From positions 120,900,001-120,964,000 of the forward strand of contig OX597820.1 in the NCBI GenBank assembly GCA_951406725.2: DNA of 64,000 bases, given 5' to 3'. The DNA is from Octopus vulgaris. Taxonomy: Eukaryota. Made by a program: the position numbers and the translations under genes. Below the pieces are notes generated by a model. The model had not been told where the DNA came from, made no database searches, and saw only the letters and a program-made list of their open reading frames with translations. This document shows positions 3,716 through 63,769 of this stretch, piece after piece (within the stretch, counting starts at the first letter, position 1; every line of letters begins with the position of its first letter).

Positions 3716-4134
3716 AAACCGTAAAATGTCAGGAAACACGAGGTGAATATATTTAGACAATATATTAGGATTAAGGCCTTTTAGCAGCCTTCATCGTACG
3801 ATAATAATTTCAGGGAATAATAAATTATGTTTACATGTCTGCGCTAATATGCATACTACTCATATTACAAATCAATTGTATATGTATAAAATTAAAATAT
3901 GTGCAGATAAAGAAAACATTGGGGTAACCTCGATGTTCTGGTAATCTGATGAGCGAGCCTTCTTTATCTGCGCTGATCCAGTAAGCATACAATTGTATTG
4001 TATAATGCACAACATTCATTACATAATGAACGATGCGAAGCAGCTAAAATGCTAAGGATGAGGACTGTTTAAATAAATATATTCGGCTCTTATACCGCCT
4101 GGTTTATATAATTTATATAGGCACAGGAGTGGCT

Positions 4135-4538
4135 ATAGGCGCAGGAGTGGCTGTGTGGTAAGTAGCTTGCTAACCAACCACATGGTTCCGGGTTCAGTCC
4201 CACTGCGTGGCACCTTGGGCAAGTGTCTTCTGCTATAGCCCCAGGCCGACCAATGTCTTGTGAGTGGATTTGGTAGACGGAAACTGAAAGAAGACTGTCG
4301 TATATATGTATATATATATAAGTGTGTGTGTATATGTTTGTGTGTCTGTGTTTGTCCCCCTAGCATTGCTTGACAACCGATGCTGGTGTGTTTACGTCCC
4401 CGTCACTTAGCGGTTCGGCAAAACAGACCGATAGAATAAGTACTGGGCTTACAAAGAATAAGTCCCGGGGTCGAATTGCTCGACTAAAAGCGGTGCTCCA
4501 GCATGGTCGCAGTCAAATGACTCAAGCAAGTAAAAGAG
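4135..4538 (+). mobile_element. tRNA-derived CORE-type SINE (family A), full length
   Basis: A box TGGCTGTGTGG, B box GGTTCAGTCCC, CORE-like CCTTGGGCAAGTGTCTT, internal (TA)/(TG) tract and tail AAGTAAAAGAG. More than 10 copies occur in the window. Confidence 0.9.
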
Positions 4539-4836
4539 TATATATATACTTACATACAGAGAGAAGGAGCGAGAGGGAGAAAGATAGAGAGTAGCAGATA
4601 GAAGCAGAGAGTAACTTGAGAATGATTTAGAAAAGCAAATAACATCTGCCAGACGAATAATCAGTGAACTGGATATAATTACATGTATTTGTTTGTTTAG
4701 CATTTTTTTTCTATTACGAAATTCCCTTTCGTCCTTATATAATATGAAATCGATGAATAACCCGCAGGTAACCACCTGCTTACCATCTCATCTGCGTAGA
4801 GTCCACAGGTAGCTTTTCGTTACCTTCTTTGCAATA

Positions 4837-5014: not shown

Positions 5015-5360
5015 GTCACAGTGACAAGATAAAAAGCGGGAACAAACACCAGAAATTATTTTAAGCAACATTTTGAAAATTTCTCCAATCCGTGATGTTG
5101 TTTGAAAACTGATATACTTCATTGACCGCGGAAGGATGATGGGCGAATTTGTCATCTGTAGTATTTTAAATTAGAACATAAGTCAGTAAAAATCCGCTGT
5201 ACATTTTATACGCTGCTTAATGAACCTAACACTTTTCAGTTCCCCTTTTATGATCTTTAATGTAAAATCCAATTAGAGTGTCAGTTATGTACCGAGCTAA
5301 TTTAATCATCTCCTTTCTCTGTTATGTAATGTTTGTGTGGAACCAAATATTCCAGCAATT

Positions 5361-5847
<487 letters not shown>

Positions 5848-6533: not shown

Positions 6534-6894
6534 ATAAGCGCAGGTGTGGCTGTGTGGTAAGACATCTGCTCCTGACCATAAAGTTCTCGGGTCCATCCCA
6601 CAGTGTTTCGGCTTGAGCAAGTGTCTTCTACTTCAGTCTCTGGTTGACCAAAACACTTGTAAGCTGATTTGGTAGACGGAAACTGAATGAAGCGCGAATT
6701 ATACATATATATATATATATATAGGCGCAGGAGTGACTGTGTGGTAAGTAGCTTGTTTACCAACCACATGGTTCCGGGTTCAGTCCCACTGCGTGACACC
6801 TTGGGCAAGTGTCTTCTACTATAGCCTCGTGCCGACCAAAGCCTTGTGAGTGGATTTGGTAGACGGAAACTGAAAGAAGCCCGTCGTATATATG

Positions 6895-6951
<57 letters not shown>

Positions 6952-7397
6952 CATGTATGTTTGTATGTCTGTGTTTGTCCCCCCAACATCGCTTGACAAC
7001 CGAAGCTGGTGTGTCTATGTCCCCGTCACTTAGCGGTTCGGCATAGAGACCGATAGAATAAGTACTGGGCTTACAAAGAATAATTCCCGGGGTCGAGTTG
7101 CTCGATAAAAGGCGGTGCTCCAGCATGGCCGCAGTCAAATGACTGAAACAAGTAAAAGAGAGTAAAAGAGTAAAGAGTATATATATATGTGTGTGTGTGT
7201 GTGTTTGTTTGTCTTTGTTCCTCATCACCAGTTGACATTTGGTGTTGGTGTGTTAACGCGAGCGTAACTAAGTGGCTCTGCCAAAAAGACCAACAGAATA
7301 AGACCAGGCTTCAAATAAATATGACCTGGGTTCGATTCGCCGACTAAAATTCTTCAAGTCGGTGCCCCAGCGTGGCCGCAGTCTTGATGACTGAAAT
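6534..7397 (+). mobile_element. Older diverged SINE family A copy split by a younger copy
   Basis: A diverged head and core at 6534-6697 and a diverged 3' half at about 7190-7397 flank the younger copy at 6721-7178. Confidence 0.75.
6721..7178 (+). mobile_element. SINE family A, full length (nested)
   Basis: Near-consensus copy ending in repeated GTAAAAGA-type units. Confidence 0.9.
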
Positions 7398-13106: not shown

Positions 13107-13187
13107 ATGTAAATGGCGGGCTTTTTCGAATTGCATTTCGGTACAAACGTGTTACCGAAATGCAATTCGAAAAAGCCCGCCATTTAC
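13107..13187. repeat. Perfect ~35-bp-arm palindrome inside a short dispersed repeat
   Basis: TGTAAATGGCGGGCTTTTTCGAATTGCATTTCGGTA / TACCGAAATGCAATTCGAAAAAGCCCGCCATTTACA. The adjacent 13190-13320 resembles parts of 59441-59660. Confidence 0.85.
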
Positions 13188-13353
13188 AGATTGGAGCAAT
13201 CTCAAGATTAATCAGCCGAAATTACGAGGATGATCCGGTTCTTGACTAAAGATTGAAGGTTTCGTGTTTTTTGTATCGTATTCTAAATGTTTTGCGTTCT
13301 TGTCCCAGTTTGTATTTTTTATACAGTTTAATACTACCTTGATAAACAGGTAT

Positions 13354-13758
13354 ATAGGCGCAGGAGTGGCTGCGTGGTAAGTAGCTTGCTTACCAACCAC
13401 ATGGTTCCAGGTTCAGGCCCACTGCGTGGCATCTTGGGCAAGTGTCTTCTGCTGTAGCCTCGGGCCGACCAAAGCCTTGTGAGTGGATTTGGTAGATGGA
13501 AACTGAAAGAAGCCCGTCGTATATATGTATATATATATGTGTGTATGTGTGTGTGTTTGTGTGTCTGTGTTTGTCCCCCTAGCATTGCTTGACATCCGAT
13601 GCTGGTGTGCTTATGTCCCCGTCACATAGCGGTTCGGCAAAAGAGACCGATAGAATAAGTACTGGGCTTACAGAAGAATAAGTCCCGGGGTCGAGTTGCT
13701 CGATTAAAGGCGGTGCTCCAGCATGGCCGCAGTCAAATGACTGAAACAAGTAAAAGAG
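13354..13758 (+). mobile_element. SINE family A, full length
   Basis: Near-consensus copy. Confidence 0.92.
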
Positions 13759-14013
13759 TCGACTGGTGCCCTACCATTCAAAGAAACACTTCCGCATTCA
13801 AATCTGACAATTCGTTCCCCTCTCTCAGTCTTCTCTCACTCTTTCACTTGTCCATTGCCTCTCAGCTTCTTACCATCCTTCTCGCTCTGCTCATGTTTTT
13901 GCTGCTATTTCCACCATTGTTGGTGTTGGCTGTCGTCGCCGTTGGTCGTCGCTTTATTTATTTCTTTCCTTCTTTCTTCTATTTGTCAACTCCATTACTA
14001 AAACGAAACAGCA

Positions 14014-18566: not shown

Positions 18567-18632
18567 CTCGTTTCTCTTTTTTCACGTTTCCTTGATGTCC
18601 TGTACCCATATATGCATGTATATATACATATA

Positions 18633-18865
18633 TATTTCTTTACTACCCACAAGGGGCTAAACACAGAGGGGACAAACAAGGTCAGACAAAGGGATTAAGT
18701 CGATTACATCGACCCCAGTGCGCAACTGGTACTTAATTTATCGACCCCGAAAGGATGAAAGGCAAAGTCGACCTCGGCGGAATTTGAACTCAGAACGTAA
18801 CAGCAGACGAAAAACGGCCACGCATTTCGCCCGGCATGCTAACGTTTCTGCCAGCTCGCCGCCTT
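18633..18865 (-). mobile_element. Meta-domain SINE (family B)
   Basis: On the minus strand, head GGCGAGCTGGCAGAAACGTTAGC, B-box-like GAGTTCAAATTCC, and GCCTTTCATCCTTTCGGGGTCGATAAATTAAGTACCAG, which resembles the MetaSINE central domain. Confidence 0.85.
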
Positions 18866-21708: not shown

Positions 21709-23200
21709 TAGATAGGTAGATAGATAGATAGATAGATAGATATAGATATAGATATGTATATATGTATAGATATGTGTGTGTGTACATTTTTAGCAAGTTG
21801 AAAGGTATGGCCGGTCATAGAGTGACCGATGGTTTTGCACCTATAAGACGCTTAGTATTATAGGCGACTCGTCAGATTCAGATGGTTAAAGGCGAGTAAC
21901 CTCTCTACAATTGGAGGAAGAAATACGTAAAGGTCAGTTGGTTTTGTAAGCAAAAAATAATTGTGCGTGCTGAAGTCAGGACAGAATTATGCCCCCTTAC
22001 ATGGGTTCCAGCTTTGGTGATATTCTAAGGAGCTTGGTAGGGCAAGAATCTTTAAAAACTCATCCGATTTAGGGACCTTTCTAAACTGCAGGTAAAATGT
22101 GTTAATCTAAAACGTTTCTTTCTACAGACTTGGAATTCCCCTTTCGCTGAATAAGCCCGCGTTTTATCACAGCTTTAATGTAAAAGAGACTTGATTTCAT
22201 CGAGACAACAGGTTCCCTAATTTCTTCTTCCATAGCTTAAAAGAATTCCCTGATGAAAGAGAAAGAAGAACTAATTTCCGACGTCATAAATGACGCTGCA
22301 TTCGCATTTCTTTCGCACTTAGTTACATAGTAAGCGCGTCCGACTGAACAACACATTTTGTGATTCGACAACGCATGTTTATCAGAAATTAATATACACA
22401 CGCGTACATACATGTGTGGGATAGAAAATGAAAAAGAAGAAAATTAAAATAAAAAAAGATGTAGAAAAATTTGAAGAAATGGTGGGGGAGGAGGAGGAAA
22501 AATATAAATTTCAAGATAAAAAATATAGTTCAAATATAAACTAAAAGTTAACTATAGTTGTGTGTAGACATGTGTGTGAGAGAGAGTGGAGGAGAGACAA
22601 TATGTGTATATGTGTGTGTGTGTGTGTGTGCGTGCGAGTGTGTTTCACTGTTTGGTAGTAGGGATGCTGTTTGTGATTATTTTAAGCTGATACATATGAG
22701 ACAGGGCTTTGCTTTCTTCATCAGTTTCCGTTTTGTATTTCCATTATGAAATTTGCGATGTAACTGAGCAGGTTGTGAAAAGAAAGGTTCTAGGGGAAAC
22801 CTTACACACCGTTTCTCTATTTCTGTTTCGTTTGTTGTTGTTGCCGTTATTGTTATTGTTGTTGTTTTGCCCACAGGTTATCTCTTCGAAAAACATCAAG
22901 TCTTTCGAGTCATGAGAGCCATGCGTTCGGCTGAGGCACACTTCATTTTGAAGTCCTGCATTAAATGCGTCATTCGCCGTCAATGTAAGAGTGTACTGTG
23001 ATTTGAGGGCGACGTGACAACTATTTCTAGTAGGTCGACTATTGAATTTGAGGGTCCCTTGCCATTGCTCGATAATGTGTTGTTGTTACGGTTCAGTGGA
23101 GCAAAACATTACTGAGTCGTGACGACCATCCCAATGAGCTGAAGAATTAAGGATGGAAATGAAGCGGAAGCAATTAAATAAACAACATGGATGACAATGA

Positions 23201-23658: not shown

Positions 23659-23720
23659 TTGTTACTTTTAGTTGTCGTATACTATGTACGCTTTGCTTGT
23701 TTGTTCTATTGTATACGATA

Positions 23721-23950
23721 GGTGGCGAGCTGGCAGAAACGTTAGCACGCCGGGCGAAATGCGTAGCCGTATTTCGTCTGTCGTTGCGTTCTGGGTTCAA
23801 ATTCCGCCGAGGTCGACTTTGCCTTTCATCCTTTTGGGGTCGATAAATTAAGTACCATTTACGCACTGGGTCGATGTAATCGACTTAATCCGTTTGTCTG
23901 TCCTTGTTTGTCCCCTCTGTGTTTAGCCCCTTGTGTGTAGTAAAGAAATA
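23721..23950 (+). mobile_element. Meta-domain SINE (family B) with 9-bp TSD
   Basis: TSD TATACGATA at 23712-23720 and 23951-23959. Confidence 0.9.
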
Positions 23951-24048
23951 TATACGATATCATCTCGTTATACGTAAAACTCCACAGTCTTTGTATTCTC
24001 ACCCGCATTCTATGCCCTCATGGCAAATAAATGAAATCATTATCATCG

Positions 24049-24079
<31 letters not shown>

Positions 24080-24080
<1 letters not shown>

Positions 24081-24621
24081 GAGTGAGAGAGCAGTGCATG
24101 CCATCAAAGTGACACTGGGGTAAAATATACGAAGCCCAATATACCCATCATGACTACCCGTCTGACAAAGGTACACCAGGCACATGCATCACAACCATAT
24201 GTGCACGACATGGTGATCTCATATCAAGATAAACAGCACATGACCTTGCAGGTGGGGCCCAGTTAGAATTTTCTTCAGGTTGAGTAGCCCATCCCGCTCA
24301 AGCGGTCTCTGAATAAGGGTTGTTTAAGGATGTTGAAAGAACCATCCATGTTTCCAGAGGTGAACTATTCAAACCCCAAAGAATCCCTCTCAACACATGT
24401 CTATGATGCTCCCCCACTACTTCTGCTCGTGATCAGAGATGCACATATCACCAGCCACTAAGGGACATGCTCAACTGGTTAAAGTCAAACAACTGACAAG
24501 CAAATCTGTGGTATTGAGCAGAATATTTGCTGTAGCCCATCTTTTATACCAAGACAAAACAATGTACATGATAACACTTCCAATCAGTTAAGATCAGAAG
24601 CCATGAGAGCCACTGCCTGGT
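24080..24621. mobile_element. ~540-bp dispersed repeat embedded in (TTA)n, copy 1
   Basis: Direct, diverged copy of 24706-25242, bounded by trinucleotide arrays on both sides. Confidence 0.8.
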
Positions 24622-24641
24622 CATCATCATCATCATCATCA

Positions 24642-24703
<62 letters not shown>

Positions 24704-24705
24704 AT

Positions 24706-25377
<672 letters not shown>

Positions 25378-25889: not shown

Positions 25890-25935
25890 GACACCTGATG
25901 AAGGTTGGAGGGTATATTAGTCGAAACGTTGTGTT
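25890..25935 (+). ncRNA. Minimal type-I hammerhead ribozyme motif
   Basis: GACAC-CTGATGA-aggttggagggtatattagtc-GAAA-CG-TT-GTGTT. The core is intact, stem III is the palindrome AACGUU and stem II is wobble-rich. Confidence 0.75.
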
Positions 25936-32744: not shown

Positions 32745-33181
32745 GATGGCTGCCCCCTCGTTATCGAGTATGGCCATTGCACGAAGCTTAACTGTTATTG
32801 GTGCTGTGATCGAATGTGACTTTTTAGCCCAGCCAAAGATCTACAATGTCTTGTACAGAATTGGCAACTAAAACCTTTTCCGGTAATAGCCGGCTGTAGT
32901 TGTAACTGGGCTTCATGTACCTTTGCATGTCGCATAAGTCCTCCTGCCGAATTACACTCTCTTCCACATGCCCGACAGATATGATTAGTATGGTGTATTA
33001 CACCACCACCAGTGGTCAGGTTGTCACTCATCTGTCTCGTTTTATGACTATGAAGATGACTCATAAGTCCAGCTTTACTGAGGCAGGGTCTTGCACAGAC
33101 ATTGCATGTCAGCATCAAAGGAAGACCTTTCCTTCTGGAAGTGTAACAGCGATGCCCTTCCTGACAACCCTCCCTTCCTGA
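32745..33181 (-). mobile_element. RTE-like LINE 3' end encoding three C2H2 zinc fingers
   Basis: CNVCARPCLSKAGLMSHLHSH, CRACGRECNSAGGLMRHAKVH and CQFCTRHCRSLAGLKSHIRSQH*. A short RTE-type 3' UTR (ATGGCCATACTCGATAACGAGGGGGCAGCCATC) follows. It is embedded in (TACA)n. Confidence 0.75.
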
Positions 33182-33731
33182 CATACATACATACATACAT
33201 ACATACATACATACATACATACATACATACATACATACATACATACATACATACATACATACATACATACATACATACATACATACATACATACATACAT
33301 ACATACATACATACATACATAAATGCATACATACATGCATAAACACATACACGTGTTTTTACGGTCAAAGGGGACATATTTCGAATTCTCATTCTTCTTT
33401 TGTCTTTCTTTCCCGCTTTTTTAACCCTTCTCCATTTTATATGCATCTTCCTCTCTTATTTCCCGCGTGATTTCTCTTGTTCTACTGGCCTGATATACAA
33501 CTTGTATCGGCCATGAGCTCAGTGAGCCCGGAGATTGCTTGGAGGTACTGGACGTATTATCAAAAGCTACCTAAATAATATCAGCACCGTATAGAACTAT
33601 AAGTAGCTCATGGCTATGTACTCTGTACATTGAACGGGAAGGTAAGCCATATGAATGTATATATACATACATACATATATACATATATACATACATACAT
33701 ACATACATACATACATACATACATACATACA

Positions 33732-33802: not shown

Positions 33803-34680
<878 letters not shown>

Positions 34681-35827
34681 GTACAAATGAGATGTGTAAG
34701 AAATTTTAGAATCCAGTTGTTGTCTCCGGACAACAGCCGGATTCTAAGACTGCTGGGTGTGAGACACTACTTAGTTCTCTTTGAAGTATTTCTCTAGGTG
34801 AGGATTTCTTTGATATAAATCCTATCTTGCAGGGAACTGGATCATCATTTCTCTATTCCACGAGAATACCACTTTTCTTTCGACTCCCGAATTATGGTAA
34901 GTGGAACCAACTATGATGAGATTCGAACACAGGAATATAATTGAATAACGTGAGTCATTTTATCTGTATTATACTGATTTAGGAAATCTAACGCCTATCC
35001 TGCAAGCTGTGAATTTAATACTATAAAAATATACACGAAAAATTATATAAATTTCTAGCTACAATAATCCAGTTGTAAATAAAGATTTTTAGAATTTTAT
35101 ATGTTTATAATTTTATCAGAGGGTGAAAATTAATTATACAACCACATAAATATTAACTTAAATTCCTAATGTTGTCATGCACTCAAGTAACTTTAGAAAT
35201 TGAATCTGAAGAAATTCGTGCGTAACAAAATATTAATAATACTTAATTTCAACTTATTTTATATCAACTAATTAAAACCCCCATTTTACATTACGCTGAC
35301 CTACACAAATTATACGAGTTATATTAACCACCAGCTCGTCTATGAAAAGATAATTATTAATGCATTTAAATATTTTTCATCTATTAAATCTGAACATTTT
35401 CAACATCGCATTACGCGTCCTCACAATATTCTACATACGCTAGATAAGAATAAGAAGTCAACAGATTTATTAAAACATTAGAGAGAATGTAAAGTGATGT
35501 ATATTCAAAAAATATATATAAACATCATTTATATTAGATATTATAAACAAATACTTAATTCATAGCAATTTTGTTTAACAAACATAACAACAACAACAAC
35601 GCCACCATAACTTATAAATACATACATACAGCTGTATATATCGTGGTCAGTGAGATTTGGTTGATATGCAGTGAATGGATGCTAGGCAGTGAGGAAGCGC
35701 AGTACGCTAAAAACGAGAAATTTGGCATTTCCGGCGTCCATGGCAACCGGTTCTCGTCTGCTAACGATATATGTATGTGCTCTTAGCACCCTACGTCTGT
35801 ATGAGAGAATCTCTCAAGATTAATACC

Positions 35828-36060
35828 TATTTCATTACTACCCACAAGGGGCTGAACATAGAGGGGACAAACATGGACAGACATAGGTATTAAGTCGATT
35901 ATATCGACCCCAGTGCTTAACTGGTACTTAATTTATCGACCCCGAAAGGATGAAAGGCAAAGTCGACCTCGGCGGAATTTGAACTCACAACGTAACGGCA
36001 GACGAAATACCGCTAAGCATTTCGCCCGACGTGCTAACGATTCTGCTAGCTCGCCGCCTT
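35828..36060 (-). mobile_element. Meta-domain SINE (family B) with 9-bp TSD
   Basis: TSD ATTAATACC at 35819-35827 and 36061-36069. Confidence 0.88.
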
Positions 36061-37637: not shown

Positions 37638-38339
37638 TGAGAGACATCAGAATAATGTGCGGATATAAGTGTGCGCGTGTGTGGATTTCCATTATGCAAA
37701 AATCAGTAATTTTACTTTCAATATATATTTTTTCTTTTAGCCATCAACTATGAAATAAAGTGATGATATACTTTCTCAATAATGTGTATAAGTTATTATA
37801 TATATTAATTTCATATCTATATGTGCTATTTAGATTGTAAATCTATCACCTACCCCAACTCACATCTTTCTTTTCACTCATGTATAAAGAAAATGATTTA
37901 AGTAAGCCATTTGCAATGCTAATATGATAGTCACCAAAAATTATCATAATCCTCCAGATCTGGAACTATACGCAAGCTTTCCGGTTCTTCGAAATTCTAG
38001 TCGCTTCTCTGATACCTTTTCAAATGGACGTGTCCTAACACTTCCAGATGTTCATATTTTGGACGGGCACGTAAGTAACAGGTGGCGAAATACAGAGCAG
38101 TGCAGCAACTTTTGCTTACAACTCCCAGGTGTAAAAAACAATCAAAGATGTTTCCGAATATTGCTTTCAATTTCCAGCTTAACATAAATAAACAATTATC
38201 CAACCCGACAGAAACCCAGATTCGTCAATATTTTAAAAATGATTTTGTCCCAGTCGTTCACTTCAATCAATAATCTTTCAGTTCTTTACCGAAAATAAAT
38301 ACGTTACTCTTGATATACATAAGATATGCAGCCATATCT

Positions 38340-38406
<67 letters not shown>

Positions 38407-38408
<2 letters not shown>

Positions 38409-39194
38409 CATTATATAATTAGGGCTTAGTAAAATAAATTACTTTGCCACATACTGAACTAAGTAGAAATAGCAGCCCCAAAAATTTTTTTTAGCCATTT
38501 CTACTACTTATTTTACTAAGCCCTAATTATATAATGTAATATTTTGAATTCGCCTTAAATGGTCCTTTTACATACTGAACACTTGGTGAAATTGATTAAT
38601 TAATTAATTTTACCCTCAATTGTTGATATTATAATTCATTTCTCTCTGTCATACTGCCTCGGTTCTCGCGGTTAAAATATAATGTTTGCTAGATAGACCA
38701 CGTGGGTGGAAGGGGGAGTGCAGAATTTTACGCCTGCGCATTTTGAATTTGTTGACACTGTTAGTTGGAGTGGTTCATCTGAAACGACAAGTTCGTTGAT
38801 AGGTAAAGTTCCTTCTTTTTAGTGTTTCCAAATCCAAATTAAGAAATTTTGAGCTGACGAAAGAAATGCTGATTTTATTTGGTTAATCTTGAAACGTTGA
38901 CGTACTCAAACGATCTATGTACTTGTGATATTTTTCTGTATTTACCTCCAAACCTCCGTGAGCTGTCTGGAGTAAACATTATCTGAGAGAAATTTTCTTT
39001 AAGTAGTAGAAATGGCTAAAAAAATTTTTTTTTGGCTGCTATTTCTACTTAGTTCAGTATGTGGCAAAGTAATTTATTTTACTAAGCCCTAATTATATAA
39101 TGTAATATTTTGAATTCGCCTTAAATGGTCCTTTTACACACTGAACACTTGGTGAAATTGATTAATTAATTAATTTTACCCTCAATTGTTGATA
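38407..39194 (+). mobile_element. Retrozyme/Penelope-like non-coding element (inverted piece, ~566-bp direct-repeat period, hammerhead) in (TA)n
   Basis: Near-identical direct repeats at 38508-38628 and 39074-39194. 38408-38510 is the reverse complement of about 39000-39103. An intact hammerhead lies at 38848-38910. Confidence 0.85.
38848..38910 (+). ncRNA. Canonical type-I hammerhead ribozyme
   Basis: TTTGAG-CTGACGA-AAGA...TCTT-GAAA-CGT tg ACG-TA-CTCAAA. Stem I has 6 perfect pairs, all core nucleotides are present and the cleavage triplet is GUA. Confidence 0.88.
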
Positions 39195-39209
39195 TATATA
39201 TATATATAT

Positions 39210-39375
39210 AAAGTTAATCCAAACAAGAAAACACAACAACGCGAGGACGTGGAACAAATAAAGTATTATTGGACGCTCAGGAAAGAAGGGAAGAAGGAGG
39301 GTTTAACGTTTCGAGCGGAGCTCTTCGTCGGAAACATAGGAGAAGGAAAGATCCCGAGAAGGGAACGCCAGAAAA
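39210..39375 (-). mobile_element. Short TA-adjacent repeat with hammerhead variant (family of 54628-54850)
   Basis: Minus strand 39301-39335 reads GTTT-CCGACGA-aGAGC tcc GCTC-GAAA-CG-TT-AAAC. Confidence 0.7.
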
Positions 39376-39778
39376 GTGGAAAATTTGAGGGCAAAGCTAA
39401 CAGTCATTAACTAGATCATCGATAAACTGTGTGAGAGGTAGTTTCTGATTGGTTGCTTTTTTTATGGAATCATAATAAATATTGAGATCATTTCTTTCTG
39501 AGTGAACCTCACATCATGGAAGAAAGTTGTGCAAGGAAACAGGTATCAGACTGGCAGAGAGAAATTATTGTTCTTTTCAAAAGTGAAAATCCGAGTTGGG
39601 GACTGGCTTAAAGGTTAACTCTGTCACCGAACTCGACCGAGTTACCCAGTGTTAATATGATATCACGTTTTGTGACGCTTCTGGTCTACCTGAAATAGAT
39701 CTTGTGAAAATATAAATCGGCATTTCTCGAAATTCCTGCTTTTCTAGCGACCAACCTGTATTAGGAAGTCAAAGTTAC

Positions 39779-39887
39779 GGTCGGTCATAAAGTGACCACT
39801 GGTTTCTCATCTATCAAGCGCATAGCAAAATTGAGTCTGTTAAGCGCTTTATAGGTGCGAAACCAATGGTCACGCTATGACCGACCA
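39779..39887. mobile_element. Small palindromic MITE-like element
   Basis: GGTCGGTCATAAAGTGACCACTGGTTTC... / ...GAAACCAATGGTCACGCTATGACCGACC. A related half-copy lies at about 21811-21853. Confidence 0.7.
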
Positions 39888-39927
39888 TAATAATGAAACT
39901 TCCTGCTTGAGCAATGAGGCTCTTAAG

Positions 39928-46525: not shown

Positions 46526-46716
46526 TAGGCGTAAGAGTGACTGTTTGGTAAGTAGCTTGTTTACCAGCCATATGGTTCCGGGTTCAGTCCCACTGCGTGG
46601 CACCTTGGGCAAGTGTCTTCTACTGTAGCTTCGGGCCGACCAAAGCCTTGTGAGTAGATTTGGTAGACAGAAACTGAAAGAAGCCCGTCGTATATATGTC
46701 TCTCTCTATATATATG

Positions 46717-46797
<81 letters not shown>

Positions 46798-46999
46798 TTG
46801 TGTGTCTGTGTTTGTCTCCCCAACATCACTTGACAACCGATGCTGGTGCGTTTACGTCACCGTAACTTAGCGGTTCGGCAAAAGAGACCGATAGAATAAG
46901 TACTAGGCTTACAAAGAATAAATCATGGGGTCGATTTGCTCGACTAAATGCGGTGCTCCAGCATGGCCACACTCAAATGACTAAAACAAGTAAAAGAGT
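46526..46999 (+). mobile_element. SINE family A, full length
   Basis: Head, core, internal microsatellite and tail are all present. Confidence 0.9.
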
Positions 47000-47289
47000 A
47001 ATTATACCTACAAAGATCTCTAAGGTAAAATACGTCATTCAATTGTGTAAATTAAATTTATGAAACTAAATGTCAGATTTGCAAATCTTCTATTCGTCTT
47101 TAGCCGTCACAACCCTGTTATTGAAAAAGAAATAATATTTAACCTTTTTCAAATAATTTATATGTGTGGATTTTAATACAGAAACATCCGTCACAGTTGG
47201 TACTTTTGAAGAAAGATCATTAAGCCATTGCTTCCCAATTTGAGGATTGCCAATAAGGAAATTTTGACGAACAAAGTAGTGTCACCAGT

Positions 47290-47695
47290 GCTGGCAGAAA
47301 CGTTAGCACACCGGGCGAAATGCTTAGTGGTATTTCGTCTGCCGCTACGTTCTGAGTTCAAATTCCGTCGAGGTCGACTTTGCCTTTCATCCTTTCGGGG
47401 TCGATAAATTAAGTACCAGTTACGCACTGGGGTCGATGTAATCGACTTAATACCTATGTCTGTCCTTGTTTGTCCCCTCTATGTTTAGCCCCTTGTGAGT
47501 AATAAAGAAATAGGTATTTCGTCTGCAGTTACGTTCTGAGTTCAAATTCCGCCGAGGTCGACTTTGCCTTTCATCCTTACGGGGTCGATTAAATAAGTAC
47601 TAGTTACGCACTGAGGTCGATATAATCGACTTCATCCGTTTGTCTGTCCCTTGTTTGTCCCCTCGGTGAGTAGCCTCTTGTGGACAGTAAATAAA
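47290..47695 (+). mobile_element. Meta-domain SINE (family B), tandem dimer
   Basis: A second unit restarts at GTATTTCGTCTG (about 47514) directly after the first tail. Confidence 0.88.
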
Positions 47696-49199
47696 CAAAA
47701 AGTATAGAGTAAAAGTTAGCTTTGCGCTGCTTCCAAATATTGATTGCAGTTGCATCTTCGGTTTTAGTTTTACCTAGGTATGTGCTGGATGTGTTTTGTT
47801 TAGGAAAGCGGTACAAAAGCTAGAATCTTTCATATTCTCCAATATTTTGTTGATATATAGATGTTGCACATTACATGTAGTGTACGAATTTTAGTTTCAG
47901 AAAGTCAGTTTCTTACTATCTCAATTAGATTCTTAACGTAGATTTAGGCGCCATTTTATGCGTAAAAAGCAATTTCTATTCAAATTTAATAAAATTTCTA
48001 TTTCTTTGGAGAATAACAATATGCATAGACAGACTGCTAAATACACAGCTTTAAATTCATGAAATAAATGGTCTTCGATGTCTTCTTCCGAATAGAATTT
48101 ACTTTTTAAATCTGAGGCCAAGAATTATTTTGCGTTAAATTTCGTACCAAAGAGTAAATATTAATCGACACAAATATTTAATAAAGCAAGTAATAAATAA
48201 GACTGCTTGACCTCAATTGCAAAACTTTGAATTATATTAGGAAATATTAATCAAATATATTAAAATTTTGTAAATTAATGGATTTGGGAGGTAAAAATAT
48301 ATCACATATGAATATCTTTTCTTATTGTTATTTAAATGATTTTGAATATTCTAATTTGTATTTGAATATAAATGCAACAGAAAGGAATTTCATATTGAAA
48401 CATATTAACATTTTTATAAATGCTCATTTTAATTTTGATAATTTGTTATCTTTAAAAATTATTCCGAAGCTATTTAGTGATATAATTCTGCTTGTTTGTC
48501 TCCCAGTTCTAACCTAATCATAAAAGTTAGATGCGGTATGGACTGTGTAGGACCAGACAAGGGAGGGACCAAGCGCAAATTACAAGTTTCTGTTAGCAAT
48601 TAAAGCATCACTAAGTCGATCATCAATTGCTTGGTTTGTCATGGCGATTCACGCGTACCTAGAGCTTGATCTATGAGGTGACTTGCGTTATGCTCAAGAC
48701 TAGCTATCAAATGCTTCGTTGATCATGGTTGCGTCAAGAACATCTTTTGCTTCATCTCTATGAAGTTTCGAGTTGTGCTCTGGCCATTTATGTTTGTCCT
48801 TCAGACTGCGACGTTGTTGAAACCCATTTTCACCCCAAACTTATCCAGTCATATTTGTGTGACATTTTAATACTGGCGCCCTTCCTTTCAGGTTCTTTTG
48901 ATTTATTAGAATGTTCTCGATTGTGAAGCATTTATAAATAACCTATTTTTCTATCTCTTTTTAAAATATAATTTTTCTTATAAGTAATACTGTGTGAAAA
49001 TAAATCTTTTGGATTTTATATATTTTTCATTTTGTCCCAAATATAGTGGAATATCAGCAAATGAGTGAGGATTCACTGGACATGAAAAATTAGAAACTTA
49101 AGCAGATTCCGCTAGAATTATAGTTTTTATTTGCAGTACATAAATTTCTTGGCGGCTTGAGTGGAAAACTTAGGAAAAAAATTCCAAGACAAACTAGTG

Positions 49200-52724: not shown

Positions 52725-52771
<47 letters not shown>

Positions 52772-52774
<3 letters not shown>

Positions 52775-52844
52775 ATTCAGAAAATTATATTACACACGCA
52801 CACACGCTCACACACATATACATATATATGTATATGTATAATAC

Positions 52845-52932
<88 letters not shown>

Positions 52933-53022
52933 ATATATATATGTATGTGTATATACATATACATATATATGTATATCTGTGTGAGCGTGTGTGCGTGTGT
53001 GTAATATAATTTTCTGAATCTT
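52772..53022. repeat. Inverted repeat centred on a (TA)n tract
   Basis: AAGATTCAGAAAATTATATTACACACGCACACACGCTCACAC and its near-exact reverse complement ending at 53022. Confidence 0.88.
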
Positions 53023-53339
53023 CAATATGCTAGACTACTGATATCAATTTAATATCAATTTTAACCTTATTGTTCAAATTTATATATATATATACATATA
53101 TCTTTAATACCATTTAATGAGTGTGTGTGTATGCGTGTCTGTGTGTGCGTGGGTGCCTGCGAGCATGCGTGTGTGTGTGTGTGTGTGTGTGTGTCTGTGT
53201 GCGTATGCACGTATATACATATATACATATTTGTATTTTATCTGCAATACGTTATATGAATATGATTGTGCTATGAATTGACTTCAATATAAGTCTCTAC
53301 TTTGGTTACATATACCGAAATTTTTGGGTAAGAGACCAA

Positions 53340-54575: not shown

Positions 54576-54627
<52 letters not shown>

Positions 54628-54630
<3 letters not shown>

Positions 54631-54850
54631 AATTTAATCCAAACATGAAAACACAAAGAGAAAACACAACAACGCGAGGACGTGGAACAAATATAGTATT
54701 ATTTGACGCTCAGGAAAGAAGGAAAGAAGGAGAGTATAACATTTCGAGCGGGGCTCTTCGTCGGAAACATAGGAGAAGGAAAGATCCAGAGAAGGGAAGA
54801 CAGAGGAAAAAAATCGCCAACGCTACACACGCGGTCACATTTTGAAATAT
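54628..54850 (-). mobile_element. Short microsatellite-flanked repeat with hammerhead variant (family of 39210-39375)
   Basis: Minus strand 54734-54768 reads GTTT-CCGACGA-aGAGC ccc GCTC-GAAA-TG-TT-ATAC. Confidence 0.68.
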
Positions 54851-56224: not shown

Positions 56225-57238
56225 AAAGTACAAAAAAGGAACTCTGCAGCCGAAGTGACTCGAAACACACTTAATTTATGGGAATGAAAGAACTTGCTGA
56301 CGACGGTTTGCAAAATTCAGAAATGGAGATTTCCGCCTTGAAGATGAAGATCGAACAGGACGTCCAATTGAGTTTTATGATAAACTGTTTGTGGCATTAC
56401 TTGAAGAAAATCCTGCATTATCAGTTGAAGATTTGGCAATAAAGCTTAATTCAAGCCATACAACTGTTCATCGGCATCTTCAACAACAAGGAAAGGTTTA
56501 TAAACTTCAAAAATTGGTGCCTCATGAATTGTCCGAAAGAAACAGCAAATCCAGAGTTGACATCTGCTCTTTCCCCCATTCTCGTGAACTCATTTCACCC
56601 TTTTTGGATAGACTTATAAATGGTGTCGAATAATGGATCCTCCATCGAAATGTTAATCGTCGTAAACTGTGATTTGGTAAAAGGGAAAAAGCTCAACCAC
56701 AACCGAGAAGGCAACTTCATGGAAACGTTTCTTGTCTCTACCTGGTGGGATTGCAAATGAGTCATTCATTTTGCATTGTAACCACCTAATGCAACAATCA
56801 ATGCTCAAGTCTACTGTCAGAAATTAGACGGTTTGAACCAAGCTTTGAAGAAAAAAGACCCGCTTTAGTGAATCGAAAAGGATTGATGTTTCATCAGGAA
56901 AATGTGTGACCCCACACTGCAAAGATCACATCACAGAAGATCGAAGAGCTTGGTTGAGAAAACATTCCTCATCCACCTTATTCTCCCGAACTTGCTCTTT
57001 CAGACTACCATTTGTTTCGTAGTTTACAGAATCATTTGGGGGACATACCATTTCAGAGTTCTTCGCTTTGAAACCAAAAGCGTTTTATATTGATGGGATT
57101 CAAAAGCTTGTAAATAGATGGAAGGAAGTCATAGATAATCAAGGAAAGTACAATGATGATTAAATTTCAATTAAATATAATATTTGATTACTTGTTTCCT
57201 TTATTCAAAATTCGAACAGAACTTATGGGATGACCTGA
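56225..57238 (+). pseudogene. Mariner transposase pseudogene with 3' TIR
   Basis: FAKFRNGDFRLEDEDRTGRP, LVPHELS (WVPHEL), FLDRLINGVE*W (TGDEKW), FHQENV*PH (HDNARPH) and HPPYSPELALSDYHLFRSLQN (YSPDLAPSD), with many stops and frameshifts. The right end is ...AACTTATGGGATGACCTGA followed by TA. No matching left TIR was found. Confidence 0.95.
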
Positions 57239-57253
57239 TATATATATATATAT

Positions 57254-57419
57254 ATAGGCGAAGGAGTGGGTGTGTGGTAAGTAGCTTGCTTAACAACGAC
57301 ATGGTTCCGGGTCCAGTCCCACTCCGTGACATCTTGGGCAAGCGTCTTCTACTATAGCCTCAGGTCGACCAAAGCCTTGTGAGTGGATTTGGTCGACGGA
57401 AACTGAAAGAAGCTAGTCG

Positions 57420-57461
<42 letters not shown>

Positions 57462-57678
57462 CTATGTATGTATGTATGTATGTATGTATGTGTATGTATG
57501 TATGTATACGTTTGTGTGTCTGTGTTTTTCCCCCGACATCGCTTGACAACCGGTTCGGCAAGAGAGACTGATAGAATAAGTACTAGGCTTACAAAGAATA
57601 AGTCCTGGGGCCGATGTGCTCGACTAAAGGCGGTGCTCCAGCATGGCAACAGTCAAATGACTGAAACAAGTAAAAGAG
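57254..57678 (+). mobile_element. SINE family A
   Basis: Full length apart from a ~35-bp internal deletion. It sits in the TA tract next to the mariner TIR. Confidence 0.88.
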
Positions 57679-57707
57679 TATATAAATATATGTATATAAA
57701 TACATAC

Positions 57708-57760
<53 letters not shown>

Positions 57761-57766
<6 letters not shown>

Positions 57767-57901
57767 AAGAGTAGAGTGTACGTTCAAACACAAAAGAGAT
57801 ACCCGAAGAATAGGATATCTGACTGCTCTTTCTAGCGAGTCAGATATCCTATTGTTCGGGTATCTTTTTTATGTTTGAACGTATACTGTATTCTTCTTTG
57901 A
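57761..57901. repeat. ~140-bp imperfect palindrome (MITE-like)
   Basis: ...TACGTTCAAACACAAAAGAGATACCCGAAGAATAGGATATCTGACT / AGTCAGATATCCTATTGTTCGGGTATCTTTTTTATGTTTGAACGTA... Confidence 0.85.
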
Positions 57902-58003
57902 ATAACATATAATCTATTAACTAATTTTTTCTTTCTCGCTAGACCACTGGTAACTGAGAATTTTTCGATGAATGTTCTTTCTACCCTAAGATTTTAATTA
58001 ATG

Positions 58004-60835: not shown

Positions 60836-61253
60836 ACTCTTTTTACTCTTTTACTTGTTTCAGTCATTTGACTGCGGCCATGCTGGAGCACCGCCTTTAA
60901 TCGAGCAACTCGCCCCGGGACTTATTCTTTTGTAAGCCCAGTACTTATTCTATCGTTCTCTTTTGCCGAACCGCTAAGTAACGGGGACATAAACACACCA
61001 ACATCGGTTGTCAAGCAATGCTAAGGGGACAAACACAGATACATAAACACACACACGCATACATATATATATATATATACATATATACGACGGGCTTCTT
61101 TCAGTTTCCGTCTACCAAATCCACTCACAAGGCATTGGTCGGCCCGAGGCTATAGTAGAAGACACTTACCCAAGGTGCCACGCAGTGGGACTGAACCCGG
61201 AACCATGTGGTTGGTAAACAAGCTACTTACCACACAGCCACTCCTGCGCCTAT
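60836..61253 (-). mobile_element. SINE family A, full length
   Basis: Near-consensus reverse-complement copy. Confidence 0.92.
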
Positions 61254-62597: not shown

Positions 62598-63197
62598 CTT
62601 TTCTACGGTAGGCACAATGCCCGAAAGTTTTTTTTTTTTTTTGGAGGGGGCCAGTCGATTAGATCCACCCCAGTACGCAGCTGGTACTTAATTTATCGAC
62701 CCCGAAAGGATGAACAGCAAAGCTGACCTCGGCAGAATATGAACTTAGAACGTAAACACTGACGAAATACCTATTTCTTTACTACCCACAAGGGGCTAAA
62801 CACAGAGGGGACAAACAAGGACAGACAAACGGATTAAGTCGATTACATTGACCGCAGTGCGTAACTGGTACTTATTTAATCGACCTCGAAAGGATGAAAG
62901 GGAAAGTCGACCTCGGTGGAATTTGAACTCAGAACATAACGGCAGACGAAATACCTATTTCTATTTCTTTACAACCCACAAGGGGCTAAGCACAGAGAAG
63001 ACAGACAAGGATAGACAAACGGATTAAGTCGATTATATCGATCCCTGTGCGTATCTGGTACTATATTTCTCGACCCCCGAAAGGATGAAAGGCGAAGTCG
63101 ACCGCGGCGGAATTTGAACTCAGAACGTAACGGCAGGCAAAATGCCGCTAAGCATTTCGCCCGGCGTGCTAACGTTTCTGCCAGCTCGCTGCCTTTT
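62598..63197 (-). mobile_element. Meta-domain SINE (family B) trimer within one 14-bp TSD
   Basis: Three tandem cores. ACGTAAGAAATATT occurs at 62584-62597 and 63198-63211. Confidence 0.88.
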
Positions 63198-63769
63198 ACG
63201 TAAGAAATATTAAATCTCCTTCGTTTTCCATGGATGCTTAACAATATTATATAGTGTCTTCTAAAATTTGCTTTTACAGTTTTAAATATTTCCAGATTTG
63301 TTAAATTAACATTTACTTGTGGTTTCAAAGTTTTCTTTACGAAGACGAGTCAGAATGACATTTAGCTTCACGAATGGACGTCAATACATTCAAAATATCG
63401 ACGCTGAGTTACCATCCACGAGTTTCAGTGAAACACCTAAAGCCCCCGTTTCATAAAAAGGTCCCTTTGGTGGAATAAACTCCATCTAAGATAGAAATCC
63501 TGTCTGAAAGCTGAGGGTAAGGTTGTTCCTTCTTCACACTGATGAAGACTTCAAATAAAACTCATAGATGTGAAAGTTGTACATCAGACAGAGATACAAA
63601 TATTCAACGTCAAGGAAGTTAAAGAAACACTTCCATGCATTTTACATTTAAGGCTGAGAGCCATTTCCGCAGTTGTAAACCGCAACTAAAAACTGTCAAT
63701 CCAAATTAATAATTAAGTATGTGATAATATGCGAAGTATAATTGTCGCTCAATCATTTACTAGAAAAGG

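Follow-up and report, generated by a model that had tools for sequence, protein, structure and literature searches.

Architecture of the insert and its predicted structure

The window, a 64-kb stretch of repeat-rich animal DNA (∼35% GC), holds a 788-nt insert (38408–39195) between two (TA)n runs (Table 1). Direct repeats with a period of ∼566 bp, an inverted left end of ∼100 bp and (TA)n on both sides had been claimed by the first-pass annotation, and all three are present. The direct repeats are 122 nt each, spaced 566 nt apart, with one mismatch (38573/39139); the inverted arm, 103 nt long, matches 39000–39103 at 96.2% over 104 columns, the differences sitting in an A/T-run loop; and (TA)n occupies 38343–38407 and about 39192–39210. 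The inverted arm has its 3′ end toward the left TA run, and its 5′ end, at 39000, lies immediately outside a predicted long stem, 7 nt from the foot (38993). The forward arm measures 688 nt, or 1.22 units, and crosses the predicted hammerhead cut site. Because both flanks are (TA)n, a target duplication is unreadable. No ORF was found in 38508–39195, where the longest stop-free stretch in any frame is 48 aa, and the 566-nt unit occurs as a single copy within the window. The window is probably octopus DNA, to judge by its SINE-like repeats and microsatellite load; a protein search with one translated repeat gave no match. In the window as a whole no tRNA gene was found, and one possible exon had no relative among solved structures.

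Table 1 Features of the insert and its flanks, in window coordinates
Feature	Positions	Strand	Basis
(TA)n microsatellite, left portion of putative target	38343–38407	.	sequence
Inverted 5′-truncated arm, reverse complement of 39000–39103	38408–38510	-	self-comparison
3-nt overlap TTA, linking inverted and forward arms; start of direct repeat 1	38508–38510	.	
Direct repeat 1, a pseudo-LTR-like partial tandem made of the 122 nt that end the preceding unit	38508–38629	+	
One full 566-nt unit, 34% GC, non-coding, strongly self-paired	38630–39195	+	
Predicted long stem (38638–38731 with 38925–38993), enclosing a second arm and the hammerhead	38638–38993	+	folding
Small hairpin with two-sided A-U to G-C changes (38784/38796, 38783/38797)	38783–38797	+	contig variants
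Canonical type I hammerhead, predicted cut after 38904	38848–38910	+	motif descriptor
3′ domain including hairpin 39004–39048; contig depth rises here	39000–39073	+	
Direct repeat 2, ending at second recurrent 3′ end (putative priming site 2)	39074–39195	+	
First recurrent 3′ end (putative priming site 1); the inverted arm uses 39103 here	39090–39108	+	
∼90-nt tail, at the right end exclusively	39104–39195	+	
Hairpin inside direct repeat 2, 15 nt from right end	39151–39180	+	
(TA)n, right portion of putative target; run begins about 39192	39196–39210	.	

The canonical hammerhead proposed earlier, with cleavage predicted after the GUA at 38902–38904, was recovered with all 13 of its pairs Watson–Crick. 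It consists of a 6-bp helix I (38848–53/38905–10), the core CUGACGA at 38854–60, a 4-bp helix II (38861–64/38887–90, with a 5-bp extension possible) followed by GAAA, and a 3-bp helix III closed by a UUGA loop. The full motif occurs once in the 64 kb and in none of 100 block-wise dinucleotide shuffles. Rfam gave no match in the window at gathering score and, over 38300–39700 with E up to 10, 12 weak unrelated matches that included no hammerhead family; a 24-nt hammerhead pattern had no match in metagenome and viral contigs. By prediction, the active fold lies 1.2–2.0 kcal/mol above the minimum-energy fold, with an occupancy of 0.6–1%, or 3–6% with the family letter at 38883. This letter, a C in nearly all matched contig depth, removes a pair of the misfold and raises the predicted occupancy 3- to 9-fold. 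The helix III decamer (38894–38903) is self-complementary, at −10.8 kcal/mol as a duplex and unfolded alone, like the helix III of hammerheads described as working as dimers in PMC4209133, so that a hammerhead dimer is possible on modelling grounds.

Folding of the whole unit gave −148 kcal/mol (z −5.19), with none of 100 shuffles as stable. The circular fold also had z −5.19, compared with −2.86 for the opposite strand (40 shuffles each). The 371-nt stem domain reached z −3.36, a value matched by 5 of 80 background tiles (scan up to 56393, microsatellite tiles excluded). To relate the fold to family variation we took the 40 best-supported of 134 variants, some of them linked and with phase inferred from matching depths: 16 fell on unpaired positions, 11 kept their pair, 5 were compensated by a further listed variant and 8, among them the C at 38883, broke a pair. 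The pair-breaking count among these best 40 of 134 compares with 15.1 expected (P = 0.003), and two-sided changes affected three pairs against 0.39 expected (P for two or more = 0.053). Several variants retain pairing solely as G-U on the + strand. Family variants tend to preserve the pairing that the model predicts, and the proposal of a structured, non-coding unit of retrozyme type is supported. Just past the head-to-tail point, at 38660–38671, a perfect small hairpin would, by eye, result from the variants at 38668 and 38670 together with diverged loose ends; it is a possible protein-binding signal.

Copies of the unit in public sequencing runs

Part of the stretch is contained in 20 of the 24 listed runs, which cover four organisms and 8 studies. 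We analysed contigs from four runs (X1, X2, X15 and X17; three organisms) at a likeness threshold of 80% and found, in order of size, 5950, 535, 194 and 118 matching contigs per run. The unit is therefore not single-copy but belongs to a multi-copy family with subfamilies, in line with the first-pass interpretation. Among the listed contigs, X1 record 5 and X2 record 30 read across the hammerhead, with 3 and 4 differing letters, respectively. The insert differs from all or nearly all matched contigs at 38784, 38796 and 38883, so this copy has either decayed slightly or belongs to a subfamily or species outside the four runs. Its supposed youth is thus only roughly right: the repeats differ at 1 of 122 positions, but these three letters deviate from nearly all contigs. 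Loose ends at 38771–38816 in three runs point to a subfamily with a different segment of similar length.

Contig depth, which we did not take as copy number or expression level, had no consistent step around 38904 (X15 88k/114k/80k, X17 5.3k/5.1k/4.3k, X1 774/1148/1357, X2 30/30/30), and no joint or loose end lay at 38904 among those listed. At about 38990, depth rose 1.6- to 2.8-fold in all four runs (116k to 326k, 9.4k to 23k, 3.4k to 5.5k and 53 to 95). X1 record 1 reads across the head-to-tail point (38629/38630), where 435 of the depth of 929 belong to it, with only 13 letters on its left side, the threshold being 31; the short contigs listed reach at most 13 letters left of this point, and none spans a unit.

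The loose ends, variants, indels and pieces used here are the listed ones, with 184, 94, 34 and 6804 more beyond them, respectively. Among those listed, 3′ ends fall at two TA-run sites ∼90 nt apart, about 39090–39108 and 39195. TA loose ends mark the latter, at 38629/38633 (equivalent to 39195), in at least 19 X15 and at least 3 X2 contigs, and the former in at least 14 X15 contigs before 38421 and at least 1 X2 contig behind 39108. A T-to-A change at 38542, present in about half of the depth in X15 and X17, is grouped with the 39090–39108 site. All 15 inverted/forward joints listed, out of 16, link a shorter inverted arm, 18–55 nt long, to a forward arm that starts anywhere from 38819 to 39171, with 0–5 letters shared. 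Each joint is weak singly, because it comes from one X15 contig with 20–28 letters on the short side; all were called at 80% likeness in this one run, and such joints can stem from repeats. Clustered 3′ ends combined with varied inverted junctions are the signature of insertion by Penelope-like elements (PLEs). An assembly artefact was rejected, as independent runs contain these parts and this type of junction as well. Circular permutation of the copies, which the first-pass annotation had put forward as a check, was not borne out: in the rows listed the 3′ ends gather at two recurrent sites, a pattern of internal priming by a PLE and not of a DNA transposon, and random permutation was rejected.

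Integration mechanism and template

The Penelope-type architecture suspected earlier is supported: the insert has a partial tandem, an inverted arm, a one-sided extension of ∼90 nt and (TA)n flanks. PLE insertions are described with partial tandems, an adjacent inverted 5′-truncated copy, a tail at one end and a (TA)n bias (PMC8557442, PMC3846280), and an Anolis PLE protein is reported to cut and extend both strands, to prefer AT-rich DNA and to start at two internal RNA sites, which define the tail (PMC11167929). The insert is probably a non-autonomous, retrozyme-like unit integrated by a PLE-class mechanism, whichever template was used. An autonomous PLE reverse transcriptase-endonuclease acting in trans would nick the TA run on both strands. 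Priming internally at 39195, one of them would give a 688-nt copy that passes the uncleaved hammerhead site and takes in 122 nt of the preceding unit; the other would prime near 39103, and its cDNA would stall where the long stem begins, having reached 103 nt. Annealing of the two cDNAs by their ends, over 3 nt, and repair would follow. For the inverted arm, self-priming is a published alternative origin (PMC3846280) and may apply here instead. No RT-core or GIY-YIG Pfam match to such a partner was found in the 145 of 200 filtered ORF stretches of the window that were searched.

As for the template, it must have been intact at 38904, because the long cDNA crossed this position and a cleaved linear monomer allows just 291 nt; it was thus an uncut multimer or a religated circle. 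The first-pass annotation had attributed a unit longer than one monomer to reverse transcription running past the end of a circular RNA. The excess length stands, the forward arm reaching 1.22 units, but it does not single out a circle, as an uncut linear multimer yields the same product at this locus. We give an even chance to the specific reading in which a multi-copy, non-coding 566-nt unit is mobilized in trans by a PLE reverse transcriptase-endonuclease from an uncut linear head-to-tail transcript, the likely template in our model. The Anolis PLE, the one PLE studied in vitro, mainly used RNA that had not been cleaved (PMC11167929). A point against this reading is the tail, which is ∼90 nt rather than the usual 30–40.

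In a tentative alternative, PLE-driven integration would have used a 566-nt circle, released by double hammerhead cleavage from tandem masters elsewhere and ligated by the host; reverse transcription would then pass its own start point, and the element would be a full non-LTR retrozyme. The motif itself fits this, being canonical rather than minimal, with a 6-bp helix I, a 4-bp helix II, a short helix III and a self-complementary loop (compare PMC4209133). Such motifs mark retrozymes, for which circular RNA is reported in coral, mussel and axolotl (PMC7229834); the present unit is known from contigs. The self-pairing of the whole unit, with its circular z score and compensatory pairs, also suits a circle, although the fold needs no circular closure, the linear minimum-energy structure being identical. 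Internal priming and 5′ truncation would shrink the daughters of a linear master, so something would have to restore copies of more than one unit. Against a circle, release of a monomer by double cleavage is impossible at this locus because one hammerhead is present; a second would require a forward arm of 914 nt instead of 688. Neither a dimer nor a genomic array with two hammerheads was seen among the short contigs listed. In addition, 8 of 9 predicted Xenopus retrozyme dimers are reported as uncleaved in vitro (bioRxiv 10.64898/2026.07.22.740005), the Anolis enzyme favours uncleaved RNA, and the predicted ribozyme occupancy is low. Neither tertiary contacts nor co-transcriptional folding enter the folding model; cleavage may therefore be fast, and fast cleavage would speak for the circle.

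A cluster of A-to-G differences is a hint of expression. In X2 (organism B), for which the label RNA is a guess, G makes up 42–72% of the depth at 39059, 39076, 39081, 39084 and 39085, compared with at most 10% at the same positions in the other runs. A loose end in 5 X2 contigs differs from 39054–39072 by five A-to-G changes alone. By eye, in the listed rows, 9 of the 11 A positions in 39054–39085 have such a change, and X2 overall has 25 A>G versus 15 T>C places. Judged from these contigs, the cluster looks like sense-strand A-to-I (hyper-)editing. It may instead be a subfamily difference, as the four runs compared include no DNA of organism B, and among the listed runs containing the stretch none is on record as RNA. 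A more speculative reading, which we consider rather doubtful, is that of a retrozyme family, probably octopus, with an abundant A-to-I-edited 566-nt circle and a PLE integration footprint, namely TA targeting, a pair of fixed internal priming sites separated by ∼90 nt, and the use of both target strands as primers. If true, this would be direct footprint evidence of PLE machinery reverse-transcribing a ribozyme circle, so far only proposed. The case for mobilization of animal retrozymes by PLEs has until now relied on hammerheads common to both, on co-occurrence and on terminal homology; the evidence here is of a different kind, a non-coding unit with a canonical hammerhead and many insertions with PLE-type ends. 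With thousands of contigs and varied junctions, priming sites, stall points and crossing of the ribozyme site could be counted in an assembly, making the template testable. Were the template linear, this would be an ordinary non-autonomous PLE family.

It is improbable that the unit is no family of its own but stems from the terminus (pseudo-LTR/UTR) of an autonomous PLE, persisting as truncated partial tandems. Most PLE insertions are 5′-truncated, and 24 of 57 Xenopus retrozyme families are said to match known repeats, nearly all PLE termini (bioRxiv 10.64898/2026.07.22.740005). Depth over the last 200 nt is several-fold above that of the body, and one of the listed X15 contigs carries, to the left of 38628, 19 letters that found no placement. 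However, an ORF remnant is absent in every frame, X1 records 1 and 2 continue past the end of the repeat into the beginning of the unit at high depth, diverged subfamilies resemble 38648–38680 beyond the head-to-tail point, and autonomous animal PLEs are described as mostly carrying minimal hammerheads (PMC4209133, PMC7761336). That the insert is itself an autonomous PLE is ruled out, as the unit has no ORF and neither RT nor GIY-YIG.

Least probable is a non-autonomous DNA transposon, either a MITE or a Helitron/Helentron derivative, with a hammerhead-like motif by chance: inverted repeats, TA flanks, the hairpin at 39151–39180 and a tandem-like structure would fit, but inverted junctions differ between copies (15 joints listed, out of 16) and several variants pair only as G-U on the + strand. 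The inverted repeats are not terminal, because the left end corresponds to 39103, a position 92 nt short of the right end; with the junctions varying as well, a MITE or other cut-and-paste element was rejected. The 3′ terminus of a Helitron is a hairpin followed by CTRR. Here the hairpin is present but the end runs ...GTTGAT into TA, and a Helitron was rejected.

Relation to known elements and other repeats of the window

Having one hammerhead and no autonomous-PLE ORF, the unit was classed as a non-autonomous, retrozyme-like PLE derivative. It resembles the animal non-LTR retrozymes described by Cervera and de la Pena (2020, PMC7229834) and by Li, Clavereau and Pollet (2026, bioRxiv 10.64898/2026.07.22.740005) in its canonical type I hammerhead, lack of an ORF, GC content below 50%, self-pairing, head-to-tail arrangement, many copies and proposed PLE dependence. 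Its 566 nt exceed the 150–450 bp given in the former source and fall within the 51–972 bp of the latter. An 'active' retrozyme has at least two consecutive units, each with a hammerhead; with 1.22 units and one hammerhead, the locus is a 'monomer' in the 2026 definition. The inverted arm, tail and TA target seen here are not described for retrozymes in the available text of either source.

Endonuclease-bearing PLE insertions, as presented in Arkhipova et al. (2013, PMC3846280), Craig et al. (2021, PMC8557442) and Frangieh et al. (2024, PMC11167929), share with the insert the partial tandem, the one-sided tail, an inverted 5′-truncated neighbour with a short overlap, a microsatellite target and a hammerhead upstream of the 3′ ends. 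Unlike the PLEs of these accounts, the unit has no RT/GIY-YIG ORF, a tail of ∼90 rather than 30–40 nt, and a hammerhead that is canonical instead of minimal and is not part of the 122-nt direct repeat. Chlamys elements of the non-autonomous type, such as MRC1 of Chlamydomonas, likewise derive from PLEs, have pseudo-LTRs and form multicopy insertions arranged head to tail; these, however, are algal, mostly without canonical hammerheads, and have a partner known via shared 3′ ends, according to PMC8557442. Recently active Penelope-like families are reported for Octopus vulgaris (PMC13282606), and 235 hammerheads for the giant squid (PMC6962438). Literature searches on octopus and cephalopod hammerheads and Penelope, and broader ones, turned up no account of such a family; supplements, Repbase and Dfam, outside these searches, may list it. 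The family is likely to be new, within a kind of RNA parasite that is already known.

Several other repeats were observed in the window. A second repeat family has copies at 39205–39365 (-) and 54625–54798 (-) that are 87% alike over 174 nt. Both contain a variant of a minimal hammerhead-like core (CCGACGA...GAAA), at 39331 and 54764, respectively; the first copy adjoins the TA run of the unit in opposite orientation. A relaxed scan found a minimal hammerhead-like core, CTGATGA...GAAACGTTG, at 25895 (+) and weaker candidates at 23139, 58528 and 31533. Palindromic segments at 39775–39890, 52766–53028, 13108–13188 and 57749–57911 (53-nt arms; 266 nt at 89%; others) are MITE-like or stump PLE insertions. 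Remnants, probably of LINE ends and a Tc1-type transposase, lie at 32798–33358 (-), 34383–34766 (-) and 56301–56630 (+), on the basis of Pfam matches to a C2H2 zinc finger and a weak zf-RVT (LINE ends) and a weak HTH (Tc1-type). A tandem duplication of ∼630 nt with 87.6% identity occupies 24036–25308. Two SINE-like families are both abundant in the window: the first, which presumably resembles octopus repeats, at 4134–4540, 5360–5847, 6720–7180, 13353–13759, 46526–47001, 57254–57680 and 60844–61253, and the second at 18629–18864, 23720–23954, 35822–36060, 47290–47700 and 62653–63198.
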